Shown here one piece after another: positions 11,114 to 54,885 of a stretch of DNA of 64,000 nucleotides. The stretch is from the NCBI GenBank assembly GCA_051294375.1, contig CM119271.1, forward strand, positions 16,558,681-16,622,680. Reading direction: 5' to 3'. A model generated the notes under the pieces. It was not told where the DNA came from, made no database searches, and was given only the letters and a program-made list of their open reading frames with translations. The stretch is from Paraspadella gotoi (taxonomy: Eukaryota; Animalia; Chaetognatha). How positions within the stretch are numbered: position 1 is the stretch's first letter; every line of letters begins with the position of its first letter. The translations under genes and the position numbers were made by a program.

Positions 11114-11859
11114 GTGAGATTAGCGAGAAGACAAATTTGTATTGATTTAAAGATAGAAAAAATCACAGAATCACAGATTCAAAGTTCAAAGAGCGTTTGT
11201 GAATGAAAGACATACAAATACATAGAAGCAGAAAACAGAAGGCAAACGAAAACTTATACGCGCTTCAATGTAAAAAAAAAGAAAGAAAAGAGAGAGAGAG
11301 AGAGACGAGAGATGAGAGGAGAGACGAGGAGAGGAGGAGAGAGAGAGAAGAGTAGAGAGAGAGAGAGAGAGATATTTTATTTTTTTCTCGATCAAAGACA
11401 AAGAAATTCAAGCCTTTAAATCAAACTTGATCACGTGACATGGATGCGTAGTTGTTTCCTTGTCGACGTATCCGCCGAAACAAAAGGCGCCAATGACTCG
11501 GTTCCGCTTCTTAACGGCGACAGCGGCGTGCAGCATCAGTCCGCCGCCGTCGACGCAGAGCTCCGCCGGAAGGTCGGGCTCATCTTTCCAAGTCGAGTTT
11601 CTGGTTTCAGGTGGTGGTGGGGTTCAAAGAAATATTATATTTAGTTATTTGATGACTTTAATCTGTGATTTATTTGTGATCACTCTGTATTAAAAAGTCG
11701 TGAATGCGTCGTGTACGCATCCAGAAAAAAAATCTTAAAAGTAGTATTGATCGAGCCTGCTAGCTATTAAAGAAAATCAATGAAAAAATCCGGAAAAAAA
11801 ACCAATGCTTGATGCGATAACGAATTATTAATGTAATAGTAAATTATTGATGTAATAGG

Positions 11860-12080
11860 ATATATTGATTGTGATGATAACCAATTATTGACGCGATTTG
11901 ATAACCAAATATTGATGCGATATTATCCAATAATTGATGCGATGATAACCAAATGATTGATGTGATGATAACCAAATGATTGATGTGATGATAACCAAAT
12001 GATTGATGCGATGATAGTCATCATTGATGTGATGATAATCATTCATCGATACGATAATAGTCATTCATTGACGCGATGAA
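11860..12080. repeat. ~21-23-bp minisatellite (TTGATGTGATGATAACCAAATGA)n
   Basis: Read directly. Confidence 0.8.
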
Positions 12081-13553
12081 ACATTCATCGTAAATAAAAC
12101 AAACAAATGCGTGTATGAGTGAAGAGAAGAGAAAGAGAGAGAGAAAGAGAAAGAAAGAGAGAGAGAAAGAAAGAGAATAAATCCACGAAAATCTCGGATG
12201 TAAATTTGGGATTTTGTATTGAAAAAAAAGCGCGGATTGAGGCGACTTACCACCGGTCTCTCTCTCTTAACCCTTCCTCTCTCCTCTTTATCCGAGCCGG
12301 TCTATCCACACGGTCACTTTGCCCTCGTCTTTGGCAATGACCTTAGATTGACCGGACACAGGAATAGGGCCGAGGCGACCGTAAGGTCAAGTTGGTCCGG
12401 GCGATGATAAAAGTGGATCAGGAGAGAGCTCGTCTCACTTCTTTTCTAATTCTCTTACATCGTCACAATTCTTCACCTTCTCCTCACTTTTATTATTACT
12501 ATTTTCGTCTTCTACAGGATTAAATTTTTTCAAAAAACGAACGATCACGCAAGAGATCGTACAGTGAGAGAGAGACAGAGAGAAAGACAGAGGAAAGACA
12601 GAGAGAAACAGAGAGAGACAGAGAGAAGAAAGCTGGACAGCCGCTGGAAGGCAGCTGTACAGTCACTGCATAGCCTGAACTCGTTTTTAAACGGTTCAGA
12701 TAAGGCAGCGCCTGACAAAAATAAGAAGAAAAATATATATAAAAGAAAGGCAAAAAAATGTTACAATTTTTTCCAATCATAGCTTGTAAAAGATTTTATT
12801 TTTATTTGTATTAAAATTAAGATATAGCTGCTCATTAAAAAGGTCTTTTTATTTCTCATGTTTTTTATTGTTTCAAAGATTTCTTTATGAATTTCATCTT
12901 CAATGTTATTTACTGCAATATGTAAATAAGATTAAAGCGTTTCTATAAAATAATTTGGATATTATATTGAGTACTATAATCTCATTTGAATATGGCAGTA
13001 AATCATAATGAAGTGGAAATTCAAACAAAAAATAATTGAATCAAATGTAATATTTAATATTTAATATTTTTAACTTACTATGATCACACACTTTTGTAAA
13101 ACTTTATCATAATTCATAATAATTTTTATTTAAAAAAAAACGGTAAGTCCCAGCCAAACCTATAAAATCGTAGTAGTTTTTATATAAAAACAGCGTGACG
13201 CCGACGACGACGACGACGACGCCGACGACGACGACGACGACGACGACTACGTCACAAAGAAGCAATCCTAAAACATTAAATAGAGCCAGGACCTGGCTCG
13301 ATAAAAAGCGGCTGGAAGGCAAGCGCACCAGTGGTTTTGATGTAAAGTATTATCAATTTGCCTTTTTGGAACTTAAACGTCAGGGAATTTACTAATAAAA
13401 TGATCAAATATCAATCATATTCAATCAGTTAATAGTAATAACAAATATTTTCATTTCACTCCCATTTAAAATCCGAGTATAATCTATGTTTCGACTACTT
13501 AATATTAATTGTAAAATAATGTTTCATTGAATTAATACTATTAATCTCTTCAG

Positions 13554-13955
13554 TTAAATAACTAATCCCCTCGTTTCAAACCTCGCATCATAGATCCCGA
13601 CTTTTTTAGAAATTTGACCAAGCTTGCTGCCCCCAACGACCAGAAACTTTGACCCAGTGATCGGGGTCATCGTTTGGGTGCAGATTGATCGCCCTATTCC
13701 CGTATCAGTCAGTCGACTCCAGGCTGCGGTCTTCATCTCAAGGGAGAAAAAACCCTCGGCAATTTCTTCTCCACAGATTCCACCGTGGAGAAAAACCTTG
13801 GTTCTGAGCCGGGCCACGCCAAAGTTGGCTCTGGGAGAGGGAGGTGTACCGGATGTCTCCGGCAGGGAAAAGTTGTTGGGCCCTGGATCATAGCGGAGCA
13901 ATTGGTTGTTGGCAAAGCGGCCTGGTTGCCCTTCCCATTGAGACCAGTCGCCGCC
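13554..13955 (-). CDS. Exon 3 of the NLR-like gene: further Kelch repeats (a further 3' exon is possible)
   Basis: Acceptor TTTTTTGTACCCCGTCTCCAG|GGC at 13956/13955 (phase 0), in frame with ORF 13554..13901: GGDWSQWEGQPGRFANNQLLRYDP..PPSPRANFG..VFLHGG..W..FLVVGG..IYDA. TAA at 13556-13554. Confidence 0.85.
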   Translation of the reverse strand, partial: GGDWSQWEGQPGRFANNQLLRYDPGPNNFSLPETSGTPPSPRANFGVARLRTKVFLHGGICGEEIAEGFFSLEMKTAAWSRLTDTGIGRSICTQTMTPITGSKFLVVGGSKLGQISKKVGIYDARFETRGLVI

Positions 13956-14105
13956 CTGGAGACGGGGTACAAAAAAGGTTGTCTTTAGTTTTTAAAAATA
14001 CATATACTCACATATCTCGTACTACAAGCACACTTCAATAAAATTCTTTGATAAAATCAATTTTTTCAATATATCTATCACTATTTACTTTTTTAAATGT
14101 GCTAC

Positions 14106-14629
14106 CTGGAGAAATCCTGCAAATGTGAGTCCAAGCTTTGGCCCACAGCCACCAAAATAGTACAAAGCACCTTCATATTCCCAGCCACAAAGGTGGCTTC
14201 TTGGAGCTGGGAGTTGGCCAACGGGATTGATCTTTTCAAACCTCCCTGTTAGATCGAGGGTATAAAGCTTATTGGAAGCTTTGCCCTCAGCAAGCCCACC
14301 AAATAGGTAGATGGATTCTTTAGTTGCAACGCCTATGGCTGAGGTTGTTGGCGGTGGCACATCGCCTGATGCTTTGATTCGTTGCCAAGAGTTGTCCTTT
14401 GGATCCATGACAAAAAGGTCAACAGGTAGAAAAAAAAGTGCTCCATTTGGCTGCTCTTGATATCCTCCCCAAATATAAATCTTTCCCTTGAAGGAAACTG
14501 CGATTATCCCGACGCCAATCGGGAATCGATTTGCTGTCGCGTGATGCGAGCGGAAGATCGGAGGAGCCTCAACCAATTCCACTGGAATAGGATCAGGCAG
14601 CCGAATGGTCCGTGCATGGAAAGTTGAAC
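14106..14629 (-). CDS. Exon 2 of the NLR-like gene: Kelch repeats
   Basis: Acceptor TTTTAAG|GT at 14630/14629 gives G-STFHARTIRLPDPIPVELVEAPP, in frame with ORF 14085..14582. Kelch signatures RSHHA..KIYIWGG..LFVMDP..W, IYLFGG, PAPRSH..LYYFGG. Donor CAG|GTAGCA at 14106/14105 (phase 0). Confidence 0.88.
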
Positions 14630-14686
14630 CTTAAAATTTAAAATTTATAAATAATTACACTAAAGTATCATTGTTCATATCTTTAC

Positions 14687-17222
14687 CTTTGAGGCAAATC
14701 ATGGGCATTCTTAGAATAAATGTGGAGTTTCCTGTAGCATGTTCTTGAACCGTGAAACTATCCTTTTCGTGCAAGCACAAAAAAAAGAAATCGTCAGAAA
14801 TAAAAAAAATTTTATGGATGTAAAACAACTCTTCATGGGGCCAACTTTGCTCTGAAAATGTATACTCTGCCACAAAAGCAAATTGAGCTAATTTCTTGAC
14901 AAGTTTACGAGGTAAGGCGCACAAAGTACAGAATGTAGCCACTAAATGTGATCTTAAATGCTCGTAAAACTCCTGGTTTATTTTGTTTTGCAGAATAGTC
15001 ACTTCTTCTGGAGAAAAAAAAGATTCTCCCCTTGTCTGGACATATCTTATGACCTCAGATGCCATGAGTATGCATGATGATTTTTTAATTACAATTTTTA
15101 TCATCTGAACTATGATTTGCCAGCATCTCCATCTTGTGAACGATTTGGAAGAATCAAAAATGTATTTCACATATTCTACAAACGCGGTGGATGAGTGTTT
15201 CTTCTTAAACATATCCTTAAGTAACAAGGTTGAAGCGCACCTCAATACATTGATATGCTTTTGCCCAATGTTTGAGCGAACAACCTCTTTACCAATTGGT
15301 GAAGAATTCGTGATGAGGAAAATACCAATGATAAGTTCCTCCAATTTTTTGTCAATGACATAAAAGGAAGACCATGATTTAGTTCCTTGGTCAACCACAA
15401 CTTGATGTAGTATGGCCAGCCTGCAAGCGATACTAGCTTGGTCTTGTGTAAGCGACTTCTCCAGCTTTTCATAAAATCTATCCTCAGATATATAAAAATC
15501 ACTTCTCAGAAATACTTTGCCAAGGGCAGCCAGGATACGAATATTTTCAGTGAGAAGCACCATCGTGCCTCTTCTGTACAATTTATCCATATCCTCTCCC
15601 AAACGACCAATTTCTTGTTTGATCGTCATGGCCAGAATGTGAAGGAAGCCCCCCAGCTCATCTGAGATTGTTCTGTCATCAAAAATCGCGCAAATCATAA
15701 CTAGAAACATTGGAAAAGTCATTAAGTTGATCATGGAGGAACTGCTTTTGTACTTTTGTCTAATTGCTTCACGTTTTTTATCCTGGTCATCGCAAAACTG
15801 AAAACGATTCACAAATTCTAAACTGTGGTCTTTGGATAAAGGCGCAATAGTAAACTCTGTCACATCAGCCACAATTCCTTTGAGCAAGTCTCTGGATTTT
15901 GGTCGAGTGAGAAACAAAAAAGAACTGCTGCCAAAGACCGATGAACCAGAAATGTTTTTCCGTAGAAAATTCCTAGCAATGGGTTTGGATGAACAATCAT
16001 CCAACCCATCAAGTATCCAGAGCAAGTTTGATGACTTATTGATCAACGTTTCATGCAAGTTGCTGTAATTTTCTAAATGATGGTGTTGAATAATAATATT
16101 TTCAAACAAATCCTTTGAAAAATCGAGATGTTTAATCATTAAGTGGAAAACCATGAAAAAGCTCGTCAAGCATTCATCATTGGCCCATTTGTAGGTTATG
16201 TTTTTGGCAACTGTGGTTTTTCCAAAGCCACCATTGGCACAGATCAGCAGTTTTAGACTTTTTTGATTTTCAATCTCGGACACGAGACCCTGGAAAAAGC
16301 AGTCAATTGTCGTTGTGCTTTCCAGCCTTGGTTTCCAAGTGGTTTTTCCCAAAACTTCATCATCATCGTCACTATCCTCATCGAGGCAAAGATTTTGCTT
16401 TTCCATTTCATTGGTAATTTTTTTGAAACCAACGTCAATGTAATCTTTGGATACGTCCAGCTGTTGCCTCGATCCTGGCACGTAGAAGATCTTGCACATT
16501 TGCTTCACATCTTCTTTGAAATCCTTTGACATTTCCGCAGAATCTTTGAACTCTTTGCTTTTTCTTGATGGTACCTGATTCAAAGGATACAGCGTCTTTA
16601 AATTTTGATGCGATAATCCTTTCCTTAGCTGAGGCGCTTTTTCTCTCTTCATAAAATTTTCAAAATCTGTGTTGTACATTTCTAAGAGAAGCGCATAAAT
16701 TTGTTCCATTCGATCCTGGTTATGAATTTCTTCCAGAAGAAGTTTGGTCAAATATTCCTCCCACTTTTGGCGAATATCAGGATAATCTTGGAACAGTTCC
16801 CGACAAATGACGACAATCTCGCCAAAGGCAACAACAAAGTTCAAAACATTCATCTCCTTAACGTTTGTATGGGCGTATTCGTTCCGTTTGTCCTTCAGCT
16901 TCTTTAGAAGTTCCAGGTTTTTCACGAACTTTTGCAGAACGTGATAAAGGAAAGTAACGTCGGCTTGGTCCAAATCGGGAACGTCTTCGCCTTCGAATTT
17001 GATGGTCGACATTTTGTTGGCGAACCTGAACTTCTTGATGTGCTCGATGTTCTCCACGCACCACTTTTTCCACAATTCCCCGTCTTCCCATGGTTGCTCT
17101 GTGTGACGAGGGAGTTCGACTTGGACCAAGTCTTTGAGGATCAAGGGACTTCCCTCAAACGAAAATTGCAAGAGTTTCAGATGAAATAATTTGTTGGAGG
17201 CGAGTGGATTCTTGTCCGTCAT
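14687..17222 (-). CDS. Exon 1 of an NLR/STAND-like gene: N-terminal DZIP3/hRUL138-like HEPN domain, NACHT NTPase and helical domains
   Basis: 855-aa open frame in otherwise non-coding DNA. HEPN R-X4-H motif 'KLKDKRNEYAH' (aa 113-118, nt 16886-16869) preceded by 'DLDQADVTFLYHVL'. Walker A 'ICANGGFGKTT', Walker B 'LLWILDGLDD', sensor-1 'FLFLTRP', and 'FPMFLVMIC' motif typical of NACHT. Donor AAAG|GTAAAG at 14687/14686 (phase 1). Confidence 0.9.
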
Positions 17223-27646: not shown

Positions 27647-29553
27647 TCGAATATATATAAAGTTGTGAAGAACGGACTATCACAAATCACCATTCACAAT
27701 TTCTTGATGCTCGAGAGAATCCCCAACTGGAGATAATGAACTTTGTACGCAAACGAAAAATTAATATACACTCATGTGCAAACAAAACAGAGACAAAACA
27801 AAACAATTTTTAACTTTAAATTCCAGACGCTCTATAAAGACATTTTAAATTTTTTTTAAAAAATATAATGATTTTTTAAAACTTCTTTTTTTGTTTGGGA
27901 CTAATTCATTTTTTGGCTAAAAACAAAATTATACTTTCTGTTAAGTATAAAAGGTAGAAAGTATAAAATGTACGCATCGTATTTCAGAAATAATTAGTCA
28001 GGGGTTCAATTTTTGTGTCCCCTGGTACTTAATGAATAATAGTTTAATAAATTAATAACATTTCTATCCTCTTGAAAAAAGAAAAGAATTCCATTTAAAT
28101 ATCTTTTTTTTAATATATCTATTGATATATACCCTTTAAACAACAACAACAACATTAACAACATTAACTTCCGCATTAAAAAAAAAACACACAAAACTTA
28201 TTTCCAGGAAATTAATAAATGCAAAAATAAAACCAAAATATCATCGGGTAAAGTTTAATCATCAAAAATAAACAAACTCTGTCATTCGCTACAAATGTAA
28301 AGAATTAAAAAAAAGACAAGACCGCATAAACTACAGTCAACCTCTTCCTCCTCCTCCTCCTCCTCCTCCTCCTCCTCCTCATCCGCCTCCGCCCAGGCCT
28401 CCTCCCTTCTTTTCTTTCCTACGGGTTTCCTCAGTCTTGGGAAGTTGCGAGTCGAAAGGAAAAAGAAAAAACTCACCAACAGAAGAAAAAAGAAAAAAAC
28501 TTACTTCTTGGAGTAACTGACCTCCTGAAAAAAAGGAAAATAAAACCTCATCAAAAATCTGAACTTCTTTTTTCATTTACGAATTTTAGACTAACATTGT
28601 GATAAAAAAAAGTAAGTTTCTAGGATTTTACGAGTTATGAACGTTGGTTATGATTGATTCATAGTAATTAAAAATAAACTTAAACAGAAATTTATTTTTT
28701 TAACTGTGTTTTAAGTTACTGGATACAATTAGTTGAGATGGAACGAAAACCGCAGAAGCGCCGAATCCCGCCACTCGATTTACTGAATTGCTGTATCACA
28801 TTATCCCGCCATAATGAACGCAAATGAAATAGCGCGGATGCATACAGAAGATTCATTCATTCCTTATCTTAAACTAAGACTTGGAAAATATTATCAATCA
28901 ACTAATGTAACCCTTACAATAACGATGCCAACTTAAAGTGACAAGTTTTCATACTGTTTTCGAAATGTTTTGTTTTTTTAAACTGAAATTTTAAAAGTTT
29001 TAATAGCGTATTTCATTTTTCAACGTTTAAACGATTTTTTTAACGTAATCCCTAATATATATATATTCTCTTATCAAGGGGGGATTCCTTTTATACAATT
29101 AAAACAGTTTATAAAACTGTAGTAAAAGGGTTAGGGGCAAGGGTTAGAAATTAAGATTAACAATGAGAGTTAGGGATTAGATAAGGAACAGGGATTAGTG
29201 ATTAGACTAAGCATTTTCAAGAGATATTTGATATTAGATATTAAGGTTGAGATTGGGCGCTTTCGGAAAATAATGCCAATTTCTTGTCACTAAAATAACT
29301 GATCAATTGCGTCGAGAAGCACGAAATTCTTTTTAATTTCGTTTCTTTCCGCTAAAAACCCGCATGACTTTAATTTAGTTGTCGAGGGGGAAAAAAACAA
29401 AATATTTTTGCGCCTTTCATGTCAAAAGTCGAAACAATAGGGAAAAAGAACAACAGATTAAGTCGTTTTTGAATTCTTAATTTAAAGATAATTATAATTA
29501 ATTCACAAATCAAATATGACAACGTTCACAACGATATCGTTTCTTCTCTTTCA

Positions 29554-29567
29554 GTAACCATGGCAAC
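29554..29567. promoter_or_regulatory. RFX X-box motif overlapping the start codon of the AEK-rich gene
   Basis: GTAACCATGGCAAC matches the X-box consensus GTNRCC(N0-3)RGYAAC exactly. Confidence 0.45.
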
Positions 29568-32500
29568 GACGGAAGAGACGGCGACGGCATCAGGAGACGC
29601 AGCAAAGGCGTCGGAAGCGAGTCCCTCGGCGGCAGCCGAAGCCTCGACAGGAACCGCACCAGCCGCGTCGACGCCCGCTGCAGCGGCGACGTCAGAGTCC
29701 GAGGCTTCGAAGCAGAGCGAAGGAAAATCAGGTGAGGAAGGTAGGTTCGAAAAAGCTGCTGACAAAGGGGCTGAGGCGGAAACAGCTGCAAAAGAAACGG
29801 CAGCTGCAGAAAAATCGGCTGCTGAAAAGGCTGCAGCTGAAAAAGCAGCCAAAGAAAAAGAAGCGACAGAAAAAGCTTCTGTAGAAAAAGCTGCAGCTGA
29901 GAAAGCAGCCATAGAAGAAGCTGCAGCAGAGAAAGCAGCCAAAGAAAGAAAGCGCCTGAAAAAGCTGGAGCTGAGAAAGCAGCTAAAGAAAAAGCTGCTG
30001 CTGAAAAAGCCGCAGCTGAAAAAGCAGCAAAGAAAAGCTGTAGCTGGAAAGCAGCCAAAGAAAAGGAAGCGGCTGAAAAAGCTGGAGCTGAGAAAGAAGC
30101 TAAGAAAAAGCCGCAGCTGAAAAAGCAGCCAAAGAAAAAGCTGCAGCCGAGAAAGCAGCTAAAGAAAAAGAAAGCAGCAGAAAATGAGGCTGCAGAAAAA
30201 GCTGCAGCTGAGAAAGCAGCCAAAGAAAAAGAAGAAGTAGAAATAGCGGCTGCAGAAAAAGCTGCAGCAGAGAAAGCAGCTAAAGAAAAAGCTACTGCTA
30301 AAAAGCCGCAGCTGAAAAAGCAGCCAAAGAAAAAGCTGCAGCCGAGAAAGCAGCTAAAGAAAAAGAAGCAGCAGAAAATGCGGCTGCAGAAAAAGCTGCA
30401 GCTGAGAAAAGCAGCCAAGAAAAGAAGCAGCAGAAAAAGCGACTTCAGAAAAGGCGGCTGCAGAAAAAGCTGCAGCTGAGAAAGCAGCCAAAAAAAAGAA
30501 GCAGCAGAAAAAGCTGCAGCTGAGAAGCAGGGCCAAAGAAAAGGAAGCGGCTGAAAAAGCTGGAGCTGAGAAAGAAGCTAAAGAAAAAGCCGCAGCTGAA
30601 AAAGCAGCCAAAGAAAAAGCTGCAGCCGAGAAAGCAGCTAAAGAAAAAGAAGCAGCAGAAAATGAGGCTGCAGAAAAAGCTGCAGCTGAGAAAGCAGCCA
30701 AAGAAAAAGAAGAAGTAGAAATAGCGGCTGCAGAAAAAGCTGCAGCAGAGAAAGCAGCTAAAGAAAAAGCTACTGCTGAAAAAGCCGCAGCTGAAAAAGC
30801 AGCCAAAGAAAAAGCTGCAGCCGAGAAAGTAGCTAAAGAAAAAGAAGCAGCAGAAAATGCGGCTGCAGAAAAAGCTGCAGCTGAGAAAGCAGCCAAAGAA
30901 AAAGCAGCAGTAGAAAAAGCGGCTGCAGAAAAAGCTGCAGCTGAAAAAGCAGCCAAAGAAAAAGAAGCAGCAGAAAAAGCTGCAGTCTGAGAAAGCAGCC
31001 AAAGAAAAGGAAGCGGCGGAAAAAGCTGCAGGTGAGAAAGAAGCAAAGAAAAAAGCCGCAGCTGAAAAAGAAGCCAAAGAAAAAGCTGCAGCCGAGAAAG
31101 CAGCTAAAGAAAAGAAGCAGCAGAAAATGAGGCTGCAGAAAAAGCTGCAGCTGAGAAAGCAGCCAAAGAAAAAGAAGCAGTAGAAATAGCGGCTGCAGAA
31201 AAAGCTGCAGCAGAGAAAGCAGCTAAAGAAAAAGCTACTGCTGAAAAAGCCGCAGCTGAAAAAGCAGCCAAAGAAAAAGCTGCAGCCGAGAAAGTAGCTA
31301 AAGAAAAAGAAGCAGCAGAAAATGCGGCTGCAGAAAAAGCTGCAGCTGAGAAAGCAGCCAAAGAAAAAGCAGCAGTAGAAAAAGCGGCTGCAGAAAAACT
31401 GCAGCTGAAAAAGCAGCCAAAGAAAAAGAAGCAGCAGAAAAAGCGACTTCAGAAAAGGCGGCTGCAGAAAAAGCTGCAGCTGAGAAAGCAGCCAAAGAAA
31501 AAGAGGCAGCAGAAAAAGCTGCAGCTGAGAAAGCAGCCAAAGAAAAAGAAGCAGTAGAAAAAGCAGCAGCTGAAAAAGCAGCTAAAGAAAAAGCTGCAGC
31601 TGAAAAAGCCGCTGCTGAAAAAATTGCAGCTGAGAAAGCAGCCAAAGAAAAAGAAGCGGCAGAAAAAGCTGCAGCTGAGAAAGCAGCTAAAAAAAAAGCT
31701 GCAGCTGAAAAAGCTGCAGCTGAAAAAGCTGCGGCTGAAAAAGCTGCAGCTGAGAAAGCAGCAAAAGAAAAAAAAGCAGCAGAAAAAGCGGCTGCCGAGA
31801 AAGCTGCTGCTGAAAAATTTGCAGCAGAGAAAGCAGCCAGTGAAAAGGAAGTAGCAAAAAAAGCTGAGGCTGAGAAAGCAGCTCAAGAAAAAGCTGCTGC
31901 TGAAAGGGCCGCAGCTGAAAAAGCTGCAGCTGAAAAAGCTGCAGCTGAGAAGGCAGCAAAAGAAAAAAAAGCAGCAGAAAAAGCGGCTGCCGAGAAAGCT
32001 GCAGCTGAAAAATTTGCAGCGGAGAAAGCAGCCGAAGAAAAAGAAGTGGCAAAAAAAGCTGCAGCCGAAAAAGCAGCGAAAGAAAAAGCTGCGGCTGAAA
32101 AAGCTGCAGCCGAAAAAGCTGCAAATGAGAAAGAAGCCAAAGAAAAAGAAGTCAAAGAAAAAGCTGCAGCTGAAAAAGCAGCTAAAGAAAAAGAAGCATC
32201 AGAAAAAGCGGCTGCAGAAAAATCTGCCGCTGAGAAAGCAGCCAAAGAAAAAGAAGCAGCAGAAAAAGCGGCTACAGAAAAAGCTGCAGCTGAGAAAGCA
32301 GTCAAAGAAAAAGAAGCAGCAGAAAAAACTGAGGCTGAGAAAGCAGCTAAAGAAAAAGCTGCAGCTGAGAAAGTAGCCAATGAAAAGAAAGCGGCAGAAA
32401 GAGCTGCAGCTGAGAAAGCAGCTAAAAGAAAAGCTGCAGCTGAAAAAGCGGCTGCAGAAAATGCTGCATTTGAGAACTCAGTCAAAGAAAAAGAAGCAGC

Positions 32501-33080
32501 AGAAAAATTGGCTGCAGAAAAAACTGAAGCTGAAAGAGCCACAGCTGAAAAAGCTGTAGCTGAGAAAGCAGCTAAAGAAAAAAAAACAGCAGAAAATGCG
32601 GCTGCAAAAAAAGCTGCAACTGAAAAAACCGCAGTTGAAAAAGCTGAAGCTGAGAAAGCAGCTAAAGAAAAGGCAGCAGCAGAGAAAGCAGCGAAAGAAA
32701 AGGCAGCTGTATACAAGGGCGCAAATGATAAAATTAAGGTAGGGAAAACAACTGACAATTCATCTTCTAATAAAAAGGCTTCATTAGATAAACCTACAGA
32801 CGCTACACCGTCAATTTCGCCCAAAGAAGAAGCCAAAACAGAAGATGCCAAAGAGGCCAAAAAGGAGGAACCCAAAGAGGCCAAGAAGGAGGAAACTAAA
32901 GAAGTGAAGAAAGAAGAAACCAAAGAGGCTAAGAAGGAGGAAGTGAAAGAGGCCAAGAAGGAGGAAGCCAAAGAGGCCAAGAAGGAGGAAGCCAAAGTGG
33001 CCAAGAAGGAGGAAGCCAAAGTGGCCAAGGAGGAAGCTAAAGAAGCCAAGAAAGAAGAAAACGCCGCGGAGGATCCAAAG
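29560..33080 (+). CDS. Large coding exon of an Ala/Glu/Lys-rich low-complexity protein ((AEKAA/KEK)n helical repeat, then (EAKKEE)n); frameshifted in this assembly
   Basis: Acceptor ttcttctctttcag then ACCATGG start at 29560. Repeat units vary at synonymous positions (GCT/GCA/GCC/GCG, GAA/GAG), as expected for coding repeats. Single-base slips in 29940-31400, mostly in A-runs. Donor AAG|GTTGAA at 33080/33081 (phase 0). Confidence 0.75.
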
Positions 33081-33508
33081 GTTGAAATCGGGTTAATGTT
33101 TATTGAATTATATTTGAGTTTTTTTAGACTAAAAAATGTTTTATTTTTTTTTAATATAACTATTAATTTTTTTTAAAGCTTTAAAGCTTATAAATAATCT
33201 TATAACCATGTATATTATTGGGAAGCAAAGCATTTTGGGAATTTGAAAGTCTTGATTAAAAGTTTGAATGGTTATGAAGGATGAACCGACCTTAGTCTGT
33301 CCAAAGTCAGGGGTAATATAGACTATGAAATTGGTACAACCAATATAAAAATTATCCATTCATTTAATAAATAAGCTATCTTGCCCCTGACTATTGACTC
33401 TAGTATAGCTCATTTATTGGATGAAAGAATTATTTTTACACAGTTGTAATTTAATGCATATTAATCAATTAAATTTTGATATAACTTTAATATATCCTTG
33501 CTTTTCAG

Positions 33509-33928
33509 AAAACGCCGGAAGCCAGTGCAGATACCCCGGCAGACGCCTCAGACGCCGTAGAGCCCGCCGCTGAGCCCGCCGCTGAGCCCGCCGCTGAGCC
33601 CGCCGCCGCCGACAAATCCCATAAAAAGTCGAACTTTCTCGGGCGCCTCAAATTCTGGCAGAAAAAGGATAAGAGCGAAAAGGAAAAATCGGTAAAAACG
33701 AAAAGCAAGAAGGAAAAGAAGAAGGCAGCTGCCGACGCGGCTGCCGACGCGGCGCCGGAGGAAGAGACCGCTCAGCCGAACGGCGCCGCCGTGGCCGTGG
33801 ATAACGGCGCAAAGGACTCGAAGGAAGGCGCCGAGGACGAAGTCAAAACGGAAGGTGGCGCTGCGAACGAGAAAACCGACGGGGAAGCGAAAGGAATTTT
33901 GAAAAATGTGGAAGACGTCGCTGCTTGA
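33509..33928 (+). CDS. Terminal exon of the AEK-rich gene (KTPEASADTPADASDAVE(PAAE)n..KKSNFLGRLKFWQKK..KGILKNVEDVAA*)
   Basis: Acceptor ccttgcttttcag|AAA at 33508/33509; 420-nt open GC-rich frame ending TGA 33926-33928; AT-rich 3' region follows. Absent from the ORF track because it lacks a start codon. Confidence 0.85.
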   Translation, partial: KTPEASADTPADASDAVEPAAEPAAEPAAEPAAADKSHKKSNFLGRLKFWQKKDKSEKEKSVKTKSKKEKKKAAADAAADAAPEEETAQPNGAAVAVDNGAKDSKEGAEDEVKTEGGAANEKTDGEAKGILKNVEDVAA

Positions 33929-37724: not shown

Positions 37725-38428
37725 TAGCTGCTCTCTCTCTTCTCTGTAGAGAACTTGGCTCTCCCGCGTCACAGGTAGGAATGTTCGTCGTGAGAGAGGC
37801 TCAACTGCATTGACAAACTCCCGAACGATTCTCTTCAAAAGCAAACCAAATAATAAAAATCTTAAAAGAATAGGATCGAGCCTGCCTTCATTGGCATAAC
37901 CAAATACTTGAAGTGGAAATTCAAACAAAAAATACTTAAATCCAAATGTAATATGAAAATATCAAGCTATTTCAAGATGAAAGCCATATCTAAATTTTTA
38001 ACTTACATGATCGGATCACACTTTTGTAAAACTGATATAATTCGCGCGAGGATCTTCATTGGCACGATCACATCGAAACGGGACCAATGAGAAGACAGGC
38101 TTCTTGCCATCGGGAAAGACCCGTGTCGATGATCCAATTGTACTTATAAATACTGGACTTTTTGTATAGATATCTGTCCAAATTCTACACCGTTCTTCCT
38201 TGTTGACTTTCAGAATAAAATCCACTTTTGGTTTCATGTTAGAAATCTCTGTTACTTACTTAAATGAGAGAGACAGGGCGCGAGAAACCGGGTTAAAAGA
38301 GAGAGAGGGCGAACGAAGTCGTACGTCAACTTGGTCCGGTCATCGTGTCAGTTCCTCGACCTCTGGTTGTCGTAGTCTTTGTCGTCGCCCTCCGTCGGTC
38401 TCGTGCCCTTTTTCTCTTCACACACACA

Positions 38429-44512: not shown

Positions 44513-45350
44513 TGTGATAAGAGGCGCTCAAAATGGATGTCGAAATTTTAAATCAGTTTGAGATAAGAGAAAACCTGAAACTGATTTTCCAATTTTTAAC
44601 TAAAGTCGGCGCCATAATCGCTGGAAATTTAAAGTTTTTAATTATCCAGAGCGAATTTCTGTTTATACTCGCTTAAATACTGAGTCAAAGGCCTGGATGT
44701 ACGCGAACTTAAGACGATGGTAACTAGGCTACTGTGCGTAGTTTATTTCTAACTAAGAAACTAAAGAACGATCTCGAAAATAATAAAGATATATGCATAT
44801 ATTATACATATATACATATTTTGTAGTCCTTTTGTATCAGAGAAAGAGAGATAGAAGCAGTTCTTAAGAAAACTGAAAGAGAAAGTTTAGAAAGAAGATC
44901 GTGTAGGGATCCCTAAAGACGGATCACTAAATCATAAAATGTAATAGATTCATCGCAGATGAAATCGGAACCAAAAATGGAATCGGATCCGCGACTCTGA
45001 TTGGATGAATCATCATCGAAACGGACCAATGAGAAGACAGGCTTCCTGCCATCGGGAAAGGAGCCCGTGTCGATGATCCGATTGTACTGTATAAATACTG
45101 GACCATTTTGTATTGATGCCATCTGTCCCAAATTCTGGACACCGTCTTTGCTTGTGACTTTCCAAGAATTAAATCCACTTTTGGTTTCATGTTAAAATCT
45201 CTGTCTACTAACTTAAATGTAGTGACAGGAGTGGATTCGACAGACCACGACTCCGAGAAGAAAAAACAAGCCTGGACCCCGCAACCACGTTTACTATTCA
45301 AGAAGATGGACTTTACCGGCAGCGCCAGCAGCGCCCGGAAGCTCCACTGA
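44513..45350 (+). mobile_element. 5' remnant of an LTR retrotransposon: LTR, tRNA-Leu-type PBS (45220-45240), start of gag; left boundary uncertain
   Basis: CCAAT and TATAAATA boxes in 45025-45097; the same block recurs at 38070-38265. TAGTGACAGGAGTGGATTCGA resembles the complement of the tRNA-Leu 3' end (TGGTGTCAGGAGTGGGATTCGA). Followed by a 'MDFTG' gag-like start. Confidence 0.55.
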
Positions 45351-45399
45351 AAGCGAAGGCGGTAGCATTGACCGTCTCAGCGATGTGTTCTGCTCAATA

Positions 45400-53188: not shown

Positions 53189-54011
53189 CTGGGGGAAAGA
53201 GATTGATGATGGGGTGATGNNNNNNNNNNAGAAGATGAGTTGATGGAGTGATGAAGTGATGGGGTGATTGGAGAAGAGGAGGGATTTAGATTCGAGACAT
53301 GGATGGCTCTCTTTTCCAAATTGCCCCGTTTCTATTTCTTAATCCCTGAACCTATTATTTAGTAAATTTAAACAGTAATCTGCTACTAAACCCATAATCC
53401 TATTCTTAAATCTAATCCTTCACCCTTAACCCTAATCTATCACCCTAACTCTAATCTATCACCTTAATTCTAATCTATCACCTTAATTCTAATCTATCAC
53501 CTTAACTCTAATCTATCACCTTAATTTTAATCTATCACCTTATGGTCCACCATAACCTTAATTCTAATTTATAACCTTAACTCTAATTTATCACCTTAAT
53601 TCTAATATATCACCTTAACTCTAATCTATCACCTTAATTCTAATCTATCACCTTAACTCTAATCTATTACCTTAACTCTAATCTATCACCTTAACTCTAA
53701 TCTATCACCTTAACTCTAATCTATCACTTTAATTCTAATCTATCACCTAAACTCTAATCTATCACCTTAATTCTAATCTATCACCTTAACTCTAATCTAT
53801 CACCTTAATTTTAATCTATATAATATATAATCTATTTTAATCTAACCTTAACTCTAATACATTACCTTAATTCTAATCTATCACCTTAATTCTAAACTAT
53901 CACCTTAATTTTAATCTATCACCTTGTGGTATAATCCTTTCTTTTCGTTGTGTAATAATTATTAGAAAAGTTTGAAATGAATTTTCAACAACGATTTTAT
54001 TTTTAATAAAA

Positions 54012-54053
54012 AACGGACATGTTTCGGCTTAACTACAAGCCTTCATCAGCATT
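54012..54053 (-). ncRNA. Inverted copy of the same hammerhead ribozyme
   Basis: Exact reverse complement of 54081-54122. Confidence 0.8.
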
Positions 54054-54080
54054 AAAAAAAAAGTAACTTTTTTTTTTTTT

Positions 54081-54122
54081 AATGCTGATGAAGGCTTGTA
54101 GTTAAGCCGAAACATGTCCGTT
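54081..54122 (+). ncRNA. Minimal type I hammerhead ribozyme (Penelope-type)
   Basis: CTGATGA (54085-54091), helix II GGCTT/AAGCC, GAAA (54109-54112), palindromic ACATGT helix III, GTC cleavage triplet ending 54118, helix I AATG/CGTT. Confidence 0.8.
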
Positions 54123-54274
54123 TTTTATTAAAAATAAAATCGTTGTTGAAAATACATTTCAAACTTTTCTAATAATCTATCACCTTAATTCTAATCTATC
54201 ACCTTAACTCTAATCTATCACCTTAATTCTAATCTATCACCTTAACTCTAATATATTACCTTAATTCTAATCTA

Positions 54275-54885
54275 CTATCTAGGAAAAAAGTTAGAAACAT
54301 TTTTTTTTTAAAAGTTCATTTATTCAATAAAAAATATACAAAACATGGGTAAAACATTCTCAATATTTGGTATGCCCTCCCTCGGCATCGACCACTGCCT
54401 GCATTCGTCTGGGCATGCTCTCGTAAAGCTACACACACAAATGTTTTTGATTTGTTGTATCGCCGTAAAAAATTTGCAATGGTGGAACGAGGGATTCCAA
54501 GTCTATTGCTGATGAATTGTTGCGTCTTTCCCTCTTTTCTCAGAGCTACAATTGCACCTTTATGAACCAAAAAGAGGGGCTGTCTATTCGGCATAACCAA
54601 TTTAAAAAAATAAAAAAATAACTAACTCAATTTGAAATAAAAACAAATAACTCAATACCAAGAATTGTGGAAAACTAAAGGCGATTTTTTCCGCCATTTT
54701 TCACTTGAGGTAGCAATCTTATTTTGCCTCTAACTTCTATACGGTTGGATCTACGAAAAAAAGGAAGGAAGCAACTGAAAGGAAATTTAGTGTAAAATCT
54801 GAAACATCCTGATTTTTTAAAAATCGAGCAAGTTTTCGAGTAGATATCCTCAATTAAAAATGTTTCTAACTTTTTTCCTAGATAG
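54275..54885 (-). mobile_element. Internally deleted Tc1/mariner transposon (611 bp)
   Basis: Perfect ~30-bp TIRs CTATCTAGGAAAAAAGTTAGAAACATTTTT; TA duplicated inside the host unit AATCTA|TCACC. Retains the N-terminal HTH (MPNRQPL..KGAIVALRKEGKTQQFISNRLGIPRSTIANFLRRY) and, in another frame, the classic Tc1 C-terminus LYESMPRRMQAVVDAEGGHTKY*; the DDE core is missing. Confidence 0.92.

Follow-up and report, generated by a model that had tools for sequence, protein, structure and literature searches.

Gene organization

The minus strand of a 64,000-nucleotide stretch of the Paraspadella gotoi genome (GenBank assembly GCA_051294375.1, contig CM119271.1, positions 16,558,681 to 16,622,680; hereafter the window, numbered from its first letter) very probably carries a four-exon gene encoding 1208 residues in three parts: a probable N-terminal HEPN domain, a central NACHT module and a C-terminal Kelch propeller (Table 1). 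The original prediction had joined three open reading frames (17222-14687, 14629-14106 and 13955-13554) into one coding sequence. The translation of this join is free of internal stops. Both proposed introns exhibit GT-AG ends and carry in-frame stops, so splicing is needed for a fusion protein to be made. These two introns were borne out, whereas the end of the coding sequence at 13554 was not, as a fourth exon most likely lies beyond it.

Table 1 Features of the HEPN-NACHT-Kelch gene, in order of transcription (window coordinates)
Feature	Position	Strand	Remarks
Exon 1, coding part (aa 1-845)	14687..17222	-	HEPN, linker, NACHT, HD1-WHD-HD2, CxxC linker; single open frame
Probable divergent HEPN (about aa 15-170)	16713..17180	-	Atlas clusters, relatives, weak Pfam matches
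R113-x4-H118 motif	16869..16886	-	R113-N-E-Y-A-H118
NACHT nucleotide-binding domain	15801..16238	-	Walker A A329-T336 (K335); Walker B D405/D408, D409; sensor 1 T439-R440
HD1-WHD-HD2 and family-specific linker (aa 500-838)	14709..15725	-	D624 for the WHD His; H759-x5-C765-x2-C768
Intron 1	14630..14686	-	57 nt, GT-AG, phase 1; skipped in X8 contig
Exon 2	14106..14629	-	Kelch blades 1-3, KLHDC2-like; PF24681 E 4.9e-23
Intron 2	13956..14105	-	150 nt, GT-AG, phase 0; skipped in X8 contig
Exon 3	13582..13955	-	Kelch blades 4-5; Ile where KLHDC2 has R236 and R241
Intron 3	11601..13581	-	1981 nt, GT-AG, phase 2; inferred junction, missed by the original prediction
Exon 4	11408..11600	-	Sixth Kelch blade and stop
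Candidate poly(A) signal AATAAA	11376..11381	-	27 nt past the exon 4 stop

Nine of the 11 sequencing runs listed contain the stretch. None is on record as RNA, and X8, which has a contig of cDNA type, is presumed to be RNA; the contigs and depths of X9 are identical to those of X8, and the two were counted once. An X8 contig of 2064 nt aligns to 15797-14685, 14627-14105 and 13954-13582 with zero substituted letters, omitting exactly 57 and 150 nt with gap ends CT..AC. Both predicted junctions, 14687^14629 and 14106^13955, are present in this single contig. Neither joint was seen in the DNA runs X1, X5 and X7, and X6 yielded one unspliced contig over 13560-16062. X10, from another organism, aligned to repeats only. 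In the X8 contig, splicing thus links the NACHT part to the propeller: exons 1 to 3 are joined from about aa 476 to blade 5, and the idea that the Kelch exons belong to a separate gene fails on this contig.

The third junction most likely connects 13582 to 11600, as judged from contig arithmetic, an alignment to a relative and the placement of the AATAAA signal. Base 13581 opens a GT, and an AG at 11602-11601 precedes a minus-strand frame (11408-11623) with a further Kelch blade; the reading frame continues through this splice, for a total of 3627 nt that encode 1208 aa with six GG motifs. The alignment of the spliced X8 contig ends at 13582 with 28 letters unplaced. Counted from 11600, 28 letters would end at 11573, which is also the end of an unspliced X8 intron contig, and a shared X8 contig covering exon 4 (11391-11572) starts beside it. 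Exon 4 by itself has no Pfam match; it aligns to the last 55 residues of P0005, a NACHT-Kelch relative, at 32% identity (pairwise E 4e-7), and the score of the Kelch part against P0005 rises from 100 to 121 bits once exon 4 is included. No AATAAA lies within about 250 nt of the two earlier candidate stops. On the exon 4 evidence and the higher Kelch score, the coding sequence most likely does not end at the stop at 13554. Intron 3 itself is filled with a 22-23-nt tandem array and very high-depth repeats (11864-12090 and 12800-13480).

NACHT core and CxxC linker

The NACHT module, predicted to comprise Walker A, Walker B and sensor 1, was recovered by PF05729 at aa 332-474 (E 7.3e-12; 45.9 bits against a cut-off of 26.7), and its motifs align, with D409 for the usual glutamate. 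A family profile matches NLRC4 (E 2e-13) and NLRP3 chains, and the NLRC4 alignment extends through HD1. Exon 1 resembles animal NACHT clusters, among them a HEPN_DZIP3-NACHT-LRR cluster (0.95). These animal-type neighbours, the spliceosomal introns and the kinship with KLHDC2 are what one would likely see in an invertebrate gene. No leucine-rich repeat (LRR) family was found on any exon in Pfam scans.

The region following the NACHT domain appears to be a family trait. A hidden Markov model (HMM) built from seven relatives only matches aa 500-838 of the P. gotoi protein with E 1.3e-37, and its last third matches no other listed relatives. The P. gotoi protein and all seven have in common an H-x(3-7)-CxxC motif and a W-P segment, which have no Pfam match; the cysteine motif may form a metal-binding linker. 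The labels given to the winged-helix domain (WHD) and HD2 are putative, being based on position and on the FxHxxxxE motif of the relatives, which we take to be the WHD motif. A single-sequence fold of aa 225-845 reached a pLDDT of 37.7. Just before the NACHT domain, an acidic Asp/Ser run (aa 282-290; 16345-16380, minus strand) is shared by several relatives.

Kelch propeller

About five Kelch repeats had been predicted, a count that exon 4 raises to six blades. In Pfam scans, exons 2 and 3 match Kelch families, the best being the KLHDC2/KLHL20/DRC7 model (PF24681, E 4.9e-23). The best solved chain for exon 2 is human KLHDC2 (E 1.5e-20, residues 16-164), and exon 3 continues along KLHDC2 residues 181-286, although other Kelch proteins score higher over exon 3. 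The propeller of P0005 likewise has KLHDC2 as its best match. By sequence comparison, the propeller is KLHDC2-derived, with six blades colinear with KLHDC2 from its N-terminus. The chain stops directly after blade 6 and exhibits no Elongin BC/Cullin 2 binding tail; KLHDC2 carries an Elongin/Cullin-binding tail after its propeller.

The G+C content is 39% in exon 1 and 48-55% in the Kelch exons. The lower value of exon 1 and the position of intron 1 at the module boundary fit the capture of a KLHDC2-like gene. Such a capture would be old, if it was a single event, because the identity between the P. gotoi protein and P0005 is just 24%. A metagenome scan with exon 2 gave 256 pattern matches, none of which was confirmed.

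N-terminal domain

The predicted HEPN R-x4-H motif is intact in the translation and closes a predicted helix. As for the domain around it, its identification as HEPN stands as probable through the relatives, whereas the P. gotoi sequence has no Pfam HEPN match at cut-off. The top-ranked Atlas clusters are HEPN_DZIP3 (21% of members) and DUF4559, with a score of 0.95 and a recognition of 2271 against a threshold of 2300. Among the matches listed, 18 relatives match the N-terminus, and RNxxxH is conserved in 12 of the 13 that reach the motif. Some HEPN Pfam family is matched by 13 of the 19 alignment rows at E up to 1 (best 1.9e-5); the six others are one row that has lost the motif and five fragments. 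PF18738, the DZIP3/hRUL138-like HEPN family, has no match in the P. gotoi sequence and is matched by seven of the 19 rows, with a best E of 0.00066 and all below cut-off. With 180 aa, the P. gotoi sequence matches HEPN_RiboL-PSP at E 0.077 only.

Structural searches gave little. A single-sequence fold of aa 1-220 had a pLDDT of 50.8, Foldseek and VIA returned no clear match, and no HEPN chain came up when PDB sequences were compared with the N-terminus or its profile. Residues 104-124 match PD-T4-2_B in PADLOC with E about 0.01, a stretch too short to count; two papers class that system as HEPN. Judging from the relatives, the N-terminus is quite probably a HEPN domain, with a putative RNase function.

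Relatives and the C-terminal slot

A phmmer search with exon 1 against 1.84 billion representatives gave 247 matches at E 0.001, of which 150 were listed. Word-index protein searches returned nothing, not even the relatives recovered by phmmer, and were given no weight. Twenty relatives that were looked up correspond to ENA, JGI or Logan records annotated at most as 'hypothetical protein'. For the most part, the relatives are incomplete frames from contigs of 0.6-4.3 kb, and several end near the end of exon 1, their tails lying outside the data. In a NACHT tree of 57 rows, the P. gotoi protein, P0005 and ten others form one branch (12 rows, support 99/95); the branch length of the P. gotoi protein is 1.06, and P0055, within the same branch, is also on a long branch.

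Three relatives are informative about architecture. In P0005 (1332 aa), a NACHT domain is followed in one frame by the same post-NACHT region with its linker and by a Kelch propeller of six blades, and the N-terminus is different; P0005 shows 24% identity to the P. gotoi protein over 967 columns. P0154 (954 aa) is a HEPN-NACHT-linker protein colinear with the whole of exon 1 (24% identity, pairwise E 3e-51). P0152 has the same CxxC linker, followed by a second P-loop NTPase in place of Kelch. The slot past the CxxC linker therefore likely takes different modules in different family members, by analogy with the integrated domains of plant NLRs. The tail of P0152 (residues ~470-832) is a second STAND-like NTPase, the end of which weakly resembles residues ~69-92 of P0005 (pairwise E 0.013), hinting that a second NTPase module may have been shuffled to either end of the family NACHT core. 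No second copy of the gene was found by tblastn within the window.

Proposed function and alternative explanations

The original prediction had described a tripartite effector-NTPase-sensor protein. This architecture holds, with a NACHT module and a spliced Kelch part, but the prediction had missed exon 4, the variable slot, the descent of the propeller from KLHDC2 and the signs that this copy may be degenerate. The explanation that we consider best, and slightly favour overall, is by analogy an intracellular immune switch of the HEPN-NACHT-Kelch type. The propeller would bind a foreign, cleaved or damage-derived protein, the NACHT module would open and oligomerise, and paired HEPN domains would cut RNA, thereby halting the infected cell.

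Several findings weigh against this switch. Kelch is present in one of the 150 listed matches, P0005, which has another N-terminus, so that the three-part form is seen only in the P. gotoi protein. Residues 1-190 have no HEPN Pfam match, the curated HEPN cut-off is reached by neither the P. gotoi sequence nor any relative in the 19 rows, and a profile comparison with the two DZIP3-type HEPN copies of P0030 aligns the motifs at a probability of only 56%. In X8, the HEPN and Walker A parts are found on contigs other than the spliced one, at depths of 2-5, and the depths of the HEPN-part contigs (3-5) resemble that of an unspliced intron contig (3.8). Within the spliced X8 contig, the run of eight T at 15013 is longer by one base, which, if real, would end the protein at 772 aa; a non-canonical skip of 32 nt, located 26 letters from the 5' end of the contig, would, if real, break the frame as well. 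At conserved positions, the WHD histidine that contacts ADP is D624 (V622 in an alternative register), this histidine being present in eight of eight relatives; Walker B has D409, where nine of nine aligned relatives have glutamate; and the equivalents of KLHDC2 R236 and R241 are both isoleucine, whereas P0005 retains both arginines. Finally, a stop at codon 97 is found in X5 (sample S2) and X6 (S3), and X5 also has a +1 frameshift at codon 54.

A second X8 indel, at 15955 (depth 2.4), again lies within a homopolymer, which suggests that these indels may be sequencing errors. We infer that the HEPN part is in the same mRNA as the Kelch exons. The contig of X6 that carries the codon-97 stop has one unplaced gap, and X7, X8 and X1, the possible source run, are intact at codon 97. 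The sites of the broken alleles are at 16934 and 17063 of the window, and the next in-frame methionine, Met 124, lies past the HEPN motif; a product restarted there would lack the RNase site because Met 124 follows the motif.

The available sections of PMC7583971 describe a WHD histidine that holds NLRC4 shut, the loss of which activates the protein, His443Leu NLRC4 being constitutively active. Those of PMC11470957 and PMC12035522 report C-terminal degrons as the ligands of KLHDC2, whose R236, S269 and R241 make contact with the acid group. The equivalent of S269 is kept in the HMMER register only.

The losses and broken alleles may fit decay of this copy, or allele turnover as in the pearl oyster. 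That a once-active HEPN-NACHT-Kelch receptor is now drifting toward a pseudogene is unlikely. It would account for the loss, relative to the relatives, of the WHD histidine, the Walker B glutamate and both degron arginines, for the alleles broken in two of the four non-source samples covering codon 97 (S2 and S3 broken, S4 and S5 intact), for the indels in the sole spliced contig and for the long branch. However, the frame of 3627 nt is open, the six GG motifs, Walker A, sensor 1, RNxxxH and CxxC are all retained, and splicing occurs at exact sites. Moreover, pearl-oyster HEPN and NACHT genes vary between haplotypes, so broken alleles suit an active immune family equally well.

A decoy function is improbable. 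In this case, the Kelch part would mimic host KLHDC2, the receptor would fire when a pathogen protein attacks or binds it, and the loss of the WHD histidine would make the receptor a hair-trigger that the propeller or a partner keeps closed. The propeller is indeed colinear with KLHDC2 yet lacks the R236 and R241 equivalents and ends at blade 6; the integrated Kelch domains of plant NLRs overlap effector targets, and the constitutive activity of His443Leu NLRC4 would agree with a hair-trigger. On the other hand, P0005 keeps both arginines, which suits real peptide binding, and no pathogen factor against KLHDC2 was identified in this analysis.

Less probable again is a non-immune role, in which HEPN would bind but not cut RNA, and an ATPase scaffold would recruit proteins via Kelch. 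The window exhibits no neighbouring immune genes or paralogue, as would suit such a role, but the R and H of the motif are conserved among relatives at about 25-30% identity, and the exchange of domains on either side of the NACHT core, together with broken alleles, fits conflict-driven evolution. It is highly improbable that the Kelch transcript starts inside exon 1, without HEPN or Walker A, and that no three-part protein exists: the spliced contig does start near 15800-15855 and upstream coverage is fragmentary, but low depth explains the fragmentation, exon 1 stays open throughout and can be aligned with P0154 colinearly from the HEPN part as far as the linker, and P0005 has NACHT and Kelch in one frame.

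Beyond the immune switch itself, the gene might represent a lineage-specific NLR-like class in which LRRs are replaced by a zinc-binding linker and a swappable captured domain, with the KLHDC2-derived propeller of its Kelch members sensing new C-termini made by pathogen proteases. We regard this extension as doubtful. If true, it would link the C-end rule with a death switch based on a HEPN RNase and would be an animal counterpart of the integrated-domain NLRs of plants.

Other features of the window

The other 24 open reading frames of the window were scanned and revealed a transposase-type helix-turn-helix (HTH) only. This is a Tc1/Sleeping Beauty-type transposase HTH fragment at 54319-54621 on the minus strand (E 9e-6), which adjoins a 105-nt near-perfect hairpin (53958-54176) and a 19-nt tandem array (about 53363-54311). 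On the plus strand, 29473-33928 comprises a long, low-complexity, coding-like region with 15-nt repeats encoding an EKAAA-type peptide and several broken frames, the repeats being followed by an acidic, lysine-rich, exon-like open reading frame. It may represent a structural protein, or one resembling a neurofilament tail, with slips in the assembly. Two similar frame-broken remnants on the minus strand, at 38006-38255 and 44916-45376, have no Pfam match and are probably copies of a decayed mobile element.

Comparison with known systems

The original prediction had named no described animal NLR class with a Kelch sensor, while allowing that a search might reveal one. The HEPN-NACHT head turned out to be published already, whereas the Kelch tail was not found in the open-licence papers searched. 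The available text of PMC9646362 describes over 50 pearl-oyster HEPN-NACHT proteins with LRR, TPR or WD40 tails, and HEPN and NACHT genes that vary in copy number or presence between haplotypes. In anthozoans, the corresponding text of PMC8260672 gives 17-83 HEPN-NACHT proteins per species and HEPN as the commonest NACHT partner in several of them, and the combination also appears in a family table of PMC3710099. In the portions available, these three sources propose the bivalve and anthozoan proteins as immune receptors with an RNase role. The word kelch is absent from their main texts and from eight supplements of PMC8260672, and the part of a 2026 preprint on animal STAND effectors that was available names WD40 and TPR tails but not Kelch. 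No NACHT-Kelch protein was found in the open-licence literature, where the listed papers that mention both terms are, by title and opening of the abstract, mostly Keap1/NLRP3 reviews, and where one paper on NLR domain architecture has its Kelch genes apart from the NACHT genes; the pearl-oyster architecture tables, which may bear on novelty, lie outside that scope.

With regard to the DZIP3/hRUL138-like and CXorf38-type HEPN-NACHT proteins (PF18738/PF15112 with PF05729), the P. gotoi protein shares the probable N-terminal HEPN with Rx4H, the asparagine after the arginine and the central NACHT. It also has in common with the bivalve and anthozoan proteins a C-terminal repeat domain and haplotype variability. 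In contrast to these, whose reported tails are LRR, TPR, WD40 or ankyrin, its tail is Kelch; its HEPN is below the PF18738 cut-off and forms a subfamily of its own, and a CxxC linker follows HD2. The order of nucleotide-binding domain, HD1, WHD and HD2 is that of NLRC4, NLRP3 and NOD2, but LRR, CARD/PYD and the WHD histidine are missing. The CRL2 C-degron receptor KLHDC2 is the best solved-structure match of the propeller and is colinear with it from the N-terminus, the differences being the isoleucines at the R236/R241 equivalents, the chain end at blade 6 and the fusion to NACHT.

In plants, the available sections of PMC4759884 and PMC5819176 count Kelch_1 among the domains integrated into NB-ARC NLRs. 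In both cases a host Kelch would have been captured by a STAND receptor, and different domains occupy the same slot; the plant receptors are of the NB-ARC type, whereas the P. gotoi protein exhibits a NACHT core, a HEPN head and Kelch in place of LRR. Plant NLRs with integrated Kelch_1 generally keep their LRR. Relatives in which this slot holds another module suggest that a NACHT family integrates domains in the manner of plant NLRs.

The Kelch propeller adds a sensor fold to those reported so far at the C-terminus of NACHT receptors in animals, namely LRR, TPR, WD40 and ankyrin. The value of the P. gotoi gene falls if this copy is decaying; P0005 and P0154 retain residues that it has lost. 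As the donor, KLHDC2, has a solved ligand chemistry, the question of the ligand is testable. Corals and bivalves have many HEPN-NACHT proteins, and a member whose sensor is tractable would make their proposed RNase role testable as well.

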